Source: Candidatus Heimdallarchaeum aukensis (GTDB lineage: Archaea > Asgardarchaeota > Heimdallarchaeia > Heimdallarchaeales > Heimdallarchaeaceae). Taken from it: 64,000 bases of DNA. Shown in pieces: positions 14,018 through 36,667 of the stretch. The translations under genes were made by a program, and so were the position numbers. Location of the stretch: assembly GCA_021513695.1 (NCBI GenBank), contig CP084166.1:608001-672000 (forward strand), given 5' to 3'. The notes beneath the pieces were generated by a model. It was given only the letters and a program-made list of their open reading frames with translations, was not told the DNA's origin and ran no database searches. Every line of letters starts with the position of its first letter. Within the stretch, counting starts at the first letter, position 1.

Positions 14018-16018
14018 ATGAAAAGTTTTTTACCTAAATTTCTGCTTAATGAAATCGATCTTTATTTAGATGATTCTCAGAAGTCTATTTTTGAAGAGAA
14101 GGTTAAAAGTATTGTAAGTAATGCTTCTGACTATGATACGATTTCCAAGGACATTACTGCCTTTCTTTTGAATGAAGATTTTACTGATTTAACGACTTAT
14201 GATCAAATGCTTATTCTTGTTTCAATTCTTCTAAATTACTGGAAAAAGGATTATTCTCTTATTTTTAGCATCTATGACAAATTTCATTCTTTTGATTTAC
14301 CTCTTAGCGTTATGATTTGTTTTCTTCTATTTTTTCAAGAATCTTTTGATTTAACCACTTTTAACCTTTGGAGAGAGAAGATAGAAGAGTACATTACAAA
14401 CATTTCTGATTCTACTGAAAAAGAATTTCTTAAAACTGCTATTGAGCAATTTGCTTCTAAGCTTGAGCAAAGGCCTGAGGTTGGTTATCGTTCTATGAAT
14501 CAGCTTATTCGTTCTCTTGAGGAGAATGAGCATATTTCTTATCGATATCCTTTTGTTTTCGAGGCTTTAGAGATTGATCTTATTCAGTACTCTAACATTT
14601 TAGCTGATGAAGTTTTTTCTGAAATCTGGATTGAGTCCGCTAGAAGAAGAGCTGAAGTTATGGAAAACTATGGCATGTTAGTTCAAGTTAACAGCCTTCT
14701 TGCTAGTATTTTAGTTAAAGAGTATCATCTTGAAAAAGCTAAAGAGAAAATTGAGGAGGGGTTAGAGATTGCTAAGAGGATCAATTCTCCTATTTTAGCT
14801 GCTCAAATTGAGTTGAACAAGGCCTTGTTATTGAAGATGCAAGGTAAGTTGGACGAAGCTTTGAAGTTATATGAAAAAATTGCTAAAGTTAAGAATCTTC
14901 CTCAAACTTTTCAATTGGATATTTACAGTAAAATAGGTGAAATTTATCTCAACAAGGACGAGATAGTTAAAGCTGAAGAATACTACCTTAAAGCTCACGA
15001 GATTAATAAGAAACTTAATTTTATCAATCCTCTTGTTGAAATAGTTATAGGTTACATTAACCTGATTTTAGAGAAAGATAAGGGGGAAGCTTTAGATGAG
15101 GGGTTGAAGATTGCTGAAGAACAGTTTGATTTTTCTTCTATTCCTTACTACTACTTCTACAAAGGTATTTATGAGCAACAAAGGGTTAACTTATCCTTAT
15201 CTATTGAATACCTTGAACAAGCTTTGAACTCTTTTGAGCACCAAAAGAACTTTGAGGGTATTGTTTATACTAACGGTGCATTGGCAGAGTCTTATCTTCA
15301 GATTTACAAGCTTCTTCACGATAACAAATATTCTTCTCGGTTCCTCTATTATATTGACAATCTTATTGAAATACTAAAGGAGTTAAACAATCCTTTGTAT
15401 GTTGAAGCAATAAAGACTAAAGCAGGTTACTATTTAGATAAAGGTTTAATTAAAAATGCTGAAGATCTGTTTATTGATGGAATAGAATTTGCTAGGACAC
15501 GAGGATTAAAAGAGGAAGAAATATATCTTAAGGAATCGCTTACTAACAAGAAGAATTTAACAAAAATAACTTTAGAAGGTACTCAAATACTCTTTAGAAA
15601 AATAAGGATGTTCAGCTTTGGTAAGCATAAAACTGTTCCCACCAAATTATACTTACTTTTAGCCATTAATGAAGCTGGAATTCCTTTAGTTTCTCACTCT
15701 TTTACTGAAGAAGAGATGGTAGATGATCTTTTAGTTTCAGGGTTAATTTCAGCTATAATTAATTTCTCTTCTGAAGTTCTAGGAAAAGGAGGAGAAACCT
15801 TACGATCAATAAATCATGAGGGCAAAGCTGTTATAGTAGAGAAAAAGGACAATGTGATGGGTATCTTAGTTGCTGAAGATGAGAATTTCGAGATGAGACT
15901 GGAACTTAGACAGTTTTTGCAGAAAGCGCTTGATAAGTTAGTTTCTGGACTTCCTATTGTCAGAGAAAACGACAGTGAGATTTTTTCTATTATAGAAGAA
16001 GTTTTTGAGAGAAAATAA
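14018..16018 (+). CDS. TPR protein with C-terminal roadblock/longin-like domain
   Basis: N-terminal and central TPR-like helical repeats. The C-terminal ~100 aa (LYLLLAINEAGIPLVSHSF...LVSGLISAIINFSSEVLG...AVIVEKKDNVMGILVAED) has a beta-alpha-beta-beta pattern and aligns by eye with the C-termini of the 25494-27419 and 33434-36667 proteins. Confidence 0.6.
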   Translation: MKSFLPKFLLNEIDLYLDDSQKSIFEEKVKSIVSNASDYDTISKDITAFLLNEDFTDLTTYDQMLILVSILLNYWKKDYSLIFSIYDKFHSFDLPLSVMICFLLFFQESFDLTTFNLWREKIEEYITNISDSTEKEFLKTAIEQFASKLEQRPEVGYRSMNQLIRSLEENEHISYRYPFVFEALEIDLIQYSNILADEVFSEIWIESARRRAEVMENYGMLVQVNSLLASILVKEYHLEKAKEKIEEGLEIAKRINSPILAAQIELNKALLLKMQGKLDEALKLYEKIAKVKNLPQTFQLDIYSKIGEIYLNKDEIVKAEEYYLKAHEINKKLNFINPLVEIVIGYINLILEKDKGEALDEGLKIAEEQFDFSSIPYYYFYKGIYEQQRVNLSLSIEYLEQALNSFEHQKNFEGIVYTNGALAESYLQIYKLLHDNKYSSRFLYYIDNLIEILKELNNPLYVEAIKTKAGYYLDKGLIKNAEDLFIDGIEFARTRGLKEEEIYLKESLTNKKNLTKITLEGTQILFRKIRMFSFGKHKTVPTKLYLLLAINEAGIPLVSHSFTEEEMVDDLLVSGLISAIINFSSEVLGKGGETLRSINHEGKAVIVEKKDNVMGILVAEDENFEMRLELRQFLQKALDKLVSGLPIVRENDSEIFSIIEEVFERK

Positions 16019-16101
16019 AACTAAAATTAAAACTAAAATTGAAATTAAAAGCAAAATTGAAATTATAAAATCAAAGAAGGTAAAAATTAGGAAAAAAGAG
16101 A

Positions 16102-36400: not shown

Positions 36401-36667
36401 TAAAGTAAGATTCTCATATTGAGAAGTGATTATTGTGTCATAAACTGACAAATTTTTGCCTTTATCTGAAATAGAATTTATCTGAATATTATTTATAAAG
36501 ACAAGGTTTTCATCTATGTTTGTGGGTGAATAGTCTGTTTTGGGAGTAAAATTATTTTCTTTCATCTTTGAATTGAAAAAGTTTCCTTTTAAGGTAGAAA
36601 AAGGTAAAAGTATGGCAATAATAAAGAACACAATAAATAATACTTTTTTCCTTTTTACACCTTGCAA
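33434..36667 (-). CDS. receptor-like surface glycoprotein: signal peptide, ~800-aa N-glycosylation-sequon-rich ectodomain, Pro/Thr/Ser linker, TM, cytoplasmic roadblock/longin-like domain and C-terminal wH-like segment
   Basis: Signal MQGVKRKKVLFIVFFIIAILLPFS. Dozens of N-x-S/T sequons. Linker NPVTPTSPPSPTNPNSPNG. TM LFLVKMLLFIILPILTSSIAFLIFYLLVI. Cytoplasmic IIIVHQETSISIFEVDL...LISGFFQAISSIGNEL...FVIYVFSETD aligns with the C-termini of both TPR proteins. Confidence 0.55.
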   Translation of the reverse strand: MQGVKRKKVLFIVFFIIAILLPFSTLKGNFFNSKMKENNFTPKTDYSPTNIDENLVFINNIQINSISDKGKNLSVYDTIITSQYENLTLDLANSRSNSFVIEPISDFPNEDLTLMIEKIEGIRDFYVIEGDDLKTDGTISYFDYIGLAQEFEIFWDHAMFYGINISLEVDYGTGLGNNSLDLFVVKANQTGYPDMNHILTEALSNPFNESNYNLLGGSFSYYEFNPTVLEKGQYFLVANLSIIDNSSDSSFIWRGRKASDDGKTFYFEESGGWQPFVASFDLSLIVDICPTDENGNNLLFNNPLELYLQVNGEQILSFNSPLSNSGVQVVTANTSIILEINNTYLFYRDMDAISFYSVSNETTEREINWEIFWELPSANVTSYFLFERVIDIFSQEDWSVNDARTVMNKTFSLSTLKLNNIYRLQLNNSLEACNFTLQTTSPNYVTSLTVFSSDQNEINLGYWIKGDNYFYGYEGSKLDLSTSLLNNESSGIINFTLFNPNGEISPIKANISSLLKYIDNSSYTTIGSLDSSNNQFYTNITLDPSFENSDTPGEWTIFVYWKNGTEVGFLTKSVEVKAYARLETIWQVESFSDNWTNETLVERFSGEKLSIRSWIYSLSNLNSNYSFTYISNEKILFNTSWKTNGEFSYLGDYYFTNVSLSSPVGIQSIDIIFNSSYYHNQSKTIYLRIFFKMGFSLLYPLENEFVLEQNLIANISFRITNETDNDKNIIPIFSENIKIKMNGITVLSEYYNVINTDEYTNISLNISKLGIQSGNFSLDLEITKENFKLNTSSSEITLGFKLIVNPVTPTSPPSPTNPNSPNGKDPYLFLVKMLLFIILPILTSSIAFLIFYLLVIRKRKANEFYISTYNDYLKINSIKKIIIVHQETSISIFEVDLGSDFQRDSTLISGFFQAISSIGNELTEKGSGDIRKIQYQNFVVTSARTDHFVIYVFSETDITLDIDLSIQSIILWFEANFHSYAEGWNGDPSVFNGKKEEIIEKCNSFLYLWMKNPIKVRDSKKIKQSKYLEKQLEKYLNKNDFFLIEELINKIEDDIERGKTLSYLQILYNLGYLEIKK

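Follow-up and report, generated by a model that had tools for sequence, protein, structure and literature searches.

Longin and roadblock domains pair through the edge of the sheet and helix alpha1 to give a platform for a small GTPase, as in TRAPP, Mon1-Ccz1, FLCN-FNIP and MglB, or more rarely for another partner, as in SNAREs and adaptor complexes. The function of such dimers as platforms for GTPases has been described (PMC10933270; PMC10193976), and longins are a known and strongly expanded class in Asgard archaea, with many lineage-specific fusions (10.1101/2020.10.19.343400; PMC10933270; PMC10936438). The first Lokiarchaeum genome contains 41 longin domains (PMC4917890), and 130 Asgard clusters of orthologous genes (asCOGs) belong to the roadblock/longin superfamily (10.1101/2020.10.19.343400). 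Because Asgard GTPase and longin genes are not found in operons, their partners are hard to predict (PMC10933270), and almost no regulator-client pairs are known among the dozens of small GTPases and longin or roadblock proteins of these organisms. Here we describe a longin domain, termed domain X, which occurs three times in a 64,000-nucleotide stretch of the Candidatus Heimdallarchaeum aukensis genome (contig CP084166.1, positions 608,001 to 672,000; the whole stretch is referred to as the window). We are almost certain that the domain occurs in two conserved architectures, one with tetratricopeptide repeats (TPR-longin) and one in which a surface receptor and a transmembrane (TM) helix precede the domain (receptor-TM-longin). 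Together these define a large longin family, so far unannotated, with two fixed architectures.

Domain X in two protein architectures

The window has a G+C content of 30%, and the closest genome locus is a syntenic region of Ca. H. endolithica with 90% identity, in which the same three genes are present. In the window, the domain is carried by three paralogues inside 23 kb, encoding proteins A, B and C. Their features, with window coordinates, strand and basis of assignment (ORF, open reading frame; HMM, hidden Markov model), are:

14018-16018, + strand: protein A, 666 aa, TPR-longin (ORF, translation, Pfam)
14699-15040, + strand: TPR repeats of protein A, aa 228-341 (Pfam TPR_2, TPR_1, TPR_12, TPR_MalT)
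15644-16015, + strand: X1, C-terminal domain of protein A with a predicted longin fold, aa 543-666 (family HMM, BLASTP to X2)
25494-27419, - strand: protein B, 641 aa, TPR-longin of the main FCYVFKG subtype (ORF, translation, Pfam)
26097-27035, - strand: MalT-like TPR region of protein B, aa 129-441 (Pfam PF17874, E 1.1e-11)
25497-25898, - strand: X2, C-terminal longin-fold domain of protein B, aa 508-641 (modelled copy)
33434-36667, - strand: protein C, 1077 aa, predicted surface protein of type I with a single membrane pass and a longin tail in the cytoplasm (ORF, translation, topology)
36590-36646, - strand: hydrophobic segment at the N-terminus of protein C, aa 8-26, a predicted signal peptide or anchor (hydropathy maximum of 2.51 in 19 aa)
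34253-36589, - strand: predicted ectodomain of protein C, aa 27-805 (sequon enrichment)
34199-34252, - strand: Pro/Thr/Ser-rich stalk of protein C, PVTPTSPPSPTNPNSPNG, ahead of the TM helix (sequence reading)
34100-34189, - strand: predicted TM helix of protein C, aa 827-856, with RKRK after it on the cytoplasmic side (hydropathy peak 2.62)
33629-34036, - strand: X3, predicted cytoplasmic longin-fold domain of protein C, aa 878-1013 (family HMM, hhalign)
33437-33628, - strand: conserved C-terminal module of about 65 aa after the longin domain of protein C (kept in 19 relatives)

A preliminary description of this DNA had reported a domain of about 90 aa recurring three times. The recurrence was borne out, as all three ranges lie in frame with long ORFs and their translations are as described. 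The domain itself is longer, at about 125-135 aa, and the ranges given earlier end after helix alpha2. The motif quoted earlier is a composite: X3 carries TSISIF in place of GIPL, and X1 lacks YVF. BLASTP between the copies gave E values of 1e-12 (X1-X2), 6e-5 (X1-X3) and 0.005 (X2-X3), and the family HMM (alignment A2) matched X1 and X3 with E values of 1e-31 and 4e-37. An HMM of the three copies, searched against the six-frame translation of the window, matched only X1, X2 and X3 (E 1e-43 to 5e-47). A weak match (E 0.046) at 58395-59489 lies within an ABC ATPase and was rejected as a fourth copy. Identities among the three copies are 14-30%, and they are therefore old paralogues rather than recent duplicates. 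X1 is a divergent subtype (RSINHEG...ILVAED), and X3 is of the receptor subtype, with a conserved W-D-G ... L-W-x-x-Y-P end in the alignment.

A search of 1.84 billion representative proteins with the three-copy profile recovered 1794 family members at E<=1e-3, and 265 at E<=1e-10. Among the 150 best relatives, 109 share a TPR-type N-terminal region, with which that of protein B clusters, and carry the domain at the extreme C-terminus; most are 600-790 aa in length, and TPR-longin proteins of the class of proteins A and B are about 640-730 aa. A receptor-type N-terminal region, comprising everything upstream of the longin domain, is common to 16 of the 150. In nearly all of these a hydrophobic TM-like segment lies some 45-50 aa before the domain, and the domain is followed by 73-83 more residues. 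Some of the best 150 are short sequences, probably fragments. Alignment of the receptor-class and TPR-class domains by hhalign (probability 98.3%, E 1.3e-14, 102 columns) indicates that this is one domain in two conserved protein families. The TPR and receptor architectures proposed earlier are thus real, each representing a conserved family rather than a one-off fusion; the window holds these two, and not three as had been claimed.

Two metagenome proteins of about 223-232 aa (P0114 and P0129) consist of the receptor-type longin and the C-terminal module alone, with neither membrane span nor ectodomain, and a further set of metagenome proteins (P0153-P0169) is of similar length. This tail-only layout would be a third architecture of the family, absent from the window. 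A word-indexed homologue search returned one fragment with X2 alone, and mostly proteins of about 223 aa, with no informative names, when a 40-sequence profile was used.

In proteins A and B the TPR assignment exceeds the curated Pfam cut-offs. TPR_2 scored 31 bits in protein A (cut-off 27), and protein B scored 57.4 bits for TPR_12 (cut-off 30.1), 46.4 for TPR_2 (cut-off 27) and 45.1 for TPR_MalT (cut-off 45). A scan against NCBIfam gave only TPR-type matches. Protein A is identical in sequence to UJG41335.1 ('tetratricopeptide repeat protein') of Candidatus Heimdallarchaeum aukensis, encoded on a 3.08-Mb contig. Protein C shares a cluster of at least 90% identity with UJG41346.1, 'hypothetical protein K9W45_02525', of equal length, which its TTG-start translation does not match exactly. 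Since the public names of proteins A and C, obtained by sequence look-up, read only "tetratricopeptide repeat protein" and "hypothetical protein", the longin domain is publicly unannotated.

The sequence of protein C predicts a type-I single-pass surface protein that is glycosylated on its outer side, in agreement with the earlier view of a 1077-aa single-pass receptor with a cytoplasmic domain. It has an N-terminal signal and one internal TM helix followed by RKRK. Its 805 outer residues contain 35 N-x-S/T sequons (shuffled sequences, 16.9 ± 3.4, maximum 32 in 2000 shuffles), and the 215-aa cytoplasmic tail contains none. The ectodomain matched no Pfam or NCBIfam family, and the ectodomains of nine receptor-class relatives matched no Pfam family. 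The cytoplasmic tail likewise matched no Pfam family, SNARE or other. The module of about 65 aa at its end is helical and is conserved in 19 receptor-class relatives, which extend 73-83 aa beyond the longin domain; it gave no Pfam or PDB sequence match. A winged-helix identity for this module was considered from its helix pattern alone, and was not adopted.

For the fold, an AlphaFold2 model of X2 was built on a 40-sequence alignment (pLDDT 88.7, pTM 0.83; pLDDT only 37 from the single sequence). The modelled elements are strands 9-16 and 22-27, helix 35-54, strands 60-64, 67-74 and 77-84, and helices 87-103, 105-117 and 123-137, giving a five-stranded antiparallel sheet and the order beta-beta-alpha-beta-beta-beta-alpha-alpha-alpha. 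By the published rules that separate longin from roadblock topology (PMC10933270), this is the longin arrangement, because no helix precedes beta1 and extra helices follow at the C-terminus. Foldseek with the model gave 40 matches at E<=1e-3, of which those inspected are longin or roadblock folds, and the nearest solved structures are longin domains. In its model, then, X2 is a longin fold. Of the roadblock or longin fold guessed at earlier, the longin half is supported by the X2 model and Foldseek, and the roadblock/LC7 half is not, given the topology and the lack of a recurrent Robl_LC7 match.

The Asgard longin and roadblock proteins described so far include GTPase-longin fusions, NPRL2-like proteins with two-component domains, FLCN/SMCR8-type proteins, and Vps28C-adaptin-longin proteins in which TPR or helix-turn-helix (HTH) domains are possible (10.1101/2020.10.19.343400; PMC10933270; PMC12290439; PMC10936438). 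TPR or HTH domains are indeed present in some Asgard longin fusions (PMC10936438). Domain X shares with these the organism group, the fold class, and lineage-specific fusion without operon linkage to GTPases, but its family has no Pfam-detectable GTPase, two-component, Vps28 or adaptin domain. In the literature searched, with thin coverage of subscription papers and supplementary tables, we found no description of a TPR-longin, of an ectodomain-TM-longin-module protein, or of a Mon1/Fuzzy/HPS1-type Asgard longin. The earlier remark that the architecture had not been described therefore holds, within the literature searched, for these two particular architectures, but not for Asgard longins as a class, which are well known.

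To place the family in genomes, a pattern-based scan was made from a narrower alignment (A3), alignment A2 being too diverse. Because of this choice, the 34 loci recovered are biased to the FCYVFKG subtype. All 34 are Asgard loci, from Heimdall, Loki/Promethearchaeota, Thor, Hermod and Atabey lineages, with one contig labelled Bathyarchaeia, and they include the cultured Promethearchaeum syntrophicum MK-D1 and Lokiarchaeum ossiferum (L024, L032). The contig labelled Bathyarchaeia (L011, DATKZI010000014.1) shares with the Heimdall loci a G+C content of about 30% and both of the genes upstream, which encode an S9 peptidase and an FtsX-domain protein. On account of this synteny and similarly low G+C, the contig or its bin is probably mislabelled.

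Four Thor and Loki loci carry two TPR-longin genes in tandem, on the same strand within each pair and with gaps of 13-342 nt:

L021, 3655-7839: tandem TPR-longin pair
L026, 259-4271: tandem TPR-longin pair
L027, 8549-12873: tandem TPR-longin pair
L030, 6178-10423: tandem TPR-longin pair

The downstream genes of the pairs in L027 and L030, both from Loki, are mutual best matches, and this pair therefore existed before those lineages diverged. The two members of the L021 pair are most closely related to one another. Such pairs fit heteromeric pairing, and tandem duplication alone could explain them too.

Similarity to the first longin domain of Mon1, Fuzzy and HPS1

A Pfam scan of 40 relatives matched PF19036, the first longin domain (LD1) of Fuzzy, Mon1 and HPS1, in 19 of them (best E 2.1e-5). 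No other longin family recurred, and every other Pfam family was matched by at most two members (Robl_LC7 and Intu_longin_1 by one each). PF19036 is thus the sole curated family matched repeatedly by the TPR-class domain, with which it shares the fold, and a precomputed PF19036 match was found for relative P0172. Both have a G-x-P-(I/V)-(Y/F)-S hairpin and a G-(F/V)-(L/M)-x-A-(L/I) helix start.

A PDB search supplied the human, fly and Chaetomium sequences of Mon1 LD1; these three replaced an earlier Mon1 profile built from exon fragments, which was too shallow (P 0.018). Aligned with Mon1 LD1 by hhalign, the family gave P 6e-6 and a probability of 85% over 62 columns, from beta1 to beta5, and the TPR class gave P 1.1e-5; over all comparisons the probability ranged from 82 to 85% and the length from 62 to 64 columns. 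Among 30 controls with shuffled columns, the lowest P was 0.004. Three family profiles, run as HMM searches against PDB sequences, gave no significant match, and the Mon1 (E 0.73) and LC7b (E 0.86) matches are leads only. Taken together, these comparisons suggest a specific, sub-threshold similarity of the TPR-class domain to LD1 of the Mon1, Fuzzy and HPS1 Rab guanine nucleotide exchange factor (GEF) subunits. Within the literature searched, this would be the first sequence-level hint of a PF19036-type longin in Asgard archaea.

Conserved positions of the family (numbered on the window segment 25497-25925, minus strand) are G20 in the beta1-beta2 turn, F28, D34, L37, G40-F41-L42, A44-I45, E51, F53, R61-I62, Y81, G85, S87, A90, K93-L94 and F97.

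The family also differs from known longin systems. The tri-longin Rab GEF subunits have three consecutive longins, whereas here each protein has a single longin and the rest is TPR or ectodomain. Mon1-type GEFs have a Ccz1-type partner, but hhalign with Ccz1 LD1 gave no signal from either the TPR class or the receptor class. The receptor-class longin was tried as a Ccz1/Inturned/HPS4-type partner, and this was rejected (hhalign P 0.47; a single Pfam match, Intu_longin_1, E 0.047, in 1 of 13 members). For the TRAPP longins (TRAPPC4/synbindin, TRAPPC2/sedlin, TRAPPC1 and TRAPPC2L), the 40 relatives showed no Sybindin or Sedlin Pfam signal and the window contains no TRAPPC3/Bet3-type partners; here, moreover, the repeat region and the longin form a single polypeptide. 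The longin SNAREs (VAMP7, Sec22b and Ykt6) have a longin, a SNARE helix and a C-terminal TM segment, with no ectodomain. In protein C, unlike in these or in the SRX domain of SRP receptor alpha, a large ectodomain and a TM helix precede the longin, and no SNARE-like coiled coil follows it.

Candidate functions and the question of a GTPase partner

Our preferred reading, which we consider somewhat more likely than not, is that a paralogous Asgard longin domain in two protein families acts as a paired platform with a partner, most probably one of the numerous small GTPases of Asgard archaea. Like every longin and roadblock system characterised so far, domain X would pair with a second copy or a paralogue to give a flat platform, and the platform would dock the partner in an exchange-factor, GTPase-activating protein (GAP) or effector-type role. 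The TPR solenoid, or the ectodomain with its membrane anchor, would provide a scaffold, a location and possibly an input. In the receptor class, whose predicted cytoplasmic tail consists of a basic juxtamembrane stretch, the longin domain and the conserved module of about 65 aa, the simplest arrangement would have the longin close to the membrane bring a longin partner or a GTPase to the membrane's inner face, below a surface domain with predicted glycosylation. We infer dimerisation, GTPase binding and any signalling from longin and roadblock systems elsewhere, and a sensor-to-GTPase role from the action of longins in eukaryotes. The Mon1-like sequence signal is the reason for leaning towards a GTPase platform in the TPR class. 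Direct action of domain X on a small GTPase is a more tentative proposal, which we place just short of an even chance.

The preliminary description had placed domain X next to small GTPases and linked it to them. The genes that it named are present in the window:

2-547 (cut by the window start) and 629-1195, + strand: two genes for small GTPases of the Ras family (Pfam Ras, E 4e-31 and 6e-26)
43403-43817, - strand: decayed Arf-like GTPase gene (tblastn with an Arf-like ORF from L012, E 2e-6), with in-frame stops visible in the alignment

The Arf-like remnant has two in-frame stops and a frameshift, its NKQD motif surviving in a separate frame among fragmentary ORFs. Its N-terminus, MSWLGSIFLKK, looks amphipathic, and the remnant follows closely downstream of a methylase gene of the Eco57I/MmeI type (41024-43123).

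The two Ras genes are not adjacent to domain X: 13 kb separate them from the nearest copy, and 33 kb from the receptor gene. Transporters, aminotransferases, zinc-ribbon proteins and similar unrelated genes lie between the window GTPases and the longin genes. The lack of linkage here and in related loci is in line with what has been published on MK-D1, whose GTPase genes do not in general share operons with longin or roadblock genes (PMC10933270).

Several results weigh against the GTPase-platform reading. Iterative searches with a motif check across the 34 related loci (502 kb) found five GTPase ORFs in all, with a Ras-like gene within 10 kb of the longin gene in only 4 of the 34, and never adjacent. 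Those four loci share one arrangement, with the Ras-like gene about 5 kb upstream and TauE and POR family members, among others, in between. The recurrent neighbours are unrelated housekeeping genes (S9 peptidase, FtsX-domain protein, DegV, UvrA), and the conservation of neighbours reflects lineage-level synteny among closely related contigs. GTPase fusions, known from other Asgard longins, are absent from all 150 of the best relatives. With no adjacency, little linkage and no fusions, the window therefore supplies no evidence for the pairing that had been proposed. With respect to the domain itself, X2 scored 17.7 bits against the PF19036 gathering cut-off of 26.1 bits, X1 and X3 gave no match, and the receptor class gave no Mon1-like or Ccz1-like sequence signal by hhalign or Pfam. 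For GAP-type longins (FLCN, NPRL2, SMCR8 and C9orf72), a GP dipeptide where beta2 begins has been proposed as a mark, together with a catalytic arginine finger (PMC12290439). The dipeptide is absent from the X family, which instead has G-x-P/T/S, like Mon1, and no candidate for the arginine finger could be placed from the sequence. X2 is the one modelled copy, and X1 and X3 would share its fold by homology. Many longins, including those of SNAREs and the AP sigma and mu subunits, do not act on GTPases.

These points bear on the strongest alternative, to which we assign an appreciable though lesser probability. Here the longin would be a general adaptor or oligomerisation module with no GTPase client, tying together TPR scaffolds and receptor tails, possibly through TPR-longin/receptor-longin heterodimers. 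There are precedents: a SNARE longin folds back onto the protein it belongs to, and AP sigma and mu hold solenoid subunits and bind peptide motifs. The missing GTPase linkage and fusion, the receptor class devoid of a Mon1-like signal, and the grouping of three paralogues within 23 kb, likewise in H. endolithica, with tandem pairs elsewhere, are all consistent with such a module. However, PF19036, the only sequence family with a recurrent signal, is a longin of the GEF type; the domain is not followed by a SNARE coiled coil, and the TM helix is N-terminal to it. The carrier organisms, moreover, all have expanded sets of small GTPases (PMC10933270; 10.1101/2020.10.19.343400).

The GTPase-platform reading could also be taken further. 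The TPR-longins may be archaeal relatives of the catalytic Mon1/Fuzzy/HPS1 longin, pairing mutually or with the receptor longin at the membrane, such that a surface receptor would directly control the activation of Rab-like GTPases. We consider this unlikely. If true, it would represent outside-in GTPase signalling in archaea and a prokaryotic precursor of the tri-longin GEFs.

That domain X is instead a roadblock/LC7 (MglB-like) GAP for a Ras-like GTPase is very improbable. A three-sequence profile gave the dynein LC7b match mentioned above (E 0.86), and Robl_LC7 (PF03259) matched one of the 40 relatives (E 0.012). The window copies gave no match to this family, however, and its matches do not recur in the Pfam scan. 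The roadblock topology, alpha-beta-beta-alpha-beta-beta(-alpha) with an N-terminal helix, is not that of the X2 model, which has no helix before beta1 and two to three helices at the C-terminus, as in longins. Equally improbable is a small-molecule sensor of the PAS/GAF-like class, with the C-terminal domain as input and the TPR or ectodomain as output: one review places longins in the PAS/GAF-like superfamily (PMC4917890) and polar D34, E51, R61 and K93 are conserved, but no PAS or GAF Pfam signal appeared in the 40 relatives.

The family yields concrete candidates for binding and exchange assays. The receptor architecture sets a longin directly beneath a surface protein with predicted glycosylation, and should the GTPase link fail, the family would still mark a new membrane-proximal use of the longin fold.

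Other genes near the longin loci

Between the second and third longin genes lies a gene (27680-31624, + strand) whose product of 1314 aa contains FG-GAP repeats and bacterial TSP3 repeats. The C-terminus of this protein has a double zinc ribbon and a weak RING-finger match (E 0.004, under the Pfam cut-off), and the protein may be a further large surface protein whose cytoplasmic tail is of a signalling type. A small protein with a RING match is encoded at 16445-16948 of L003, and such proteins recur near longin relatives. The gene at 16102-18084 (- strand) of the window encodes a major-facilitator transporter with a C-terminal PhoU_div/DUF47 fusion, an unusual combination. Two further genes, at 20183-22399 (- strand) and 1826-3067 (+ strand), encode proteins with an N-terminal zinc ribbon or double zinc ribbon and an otherwise unrecognised remainder. 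Counting these two and the C-terminus of the 1314-aa protein, zinc-ribbon domains are notably frequent in the window.

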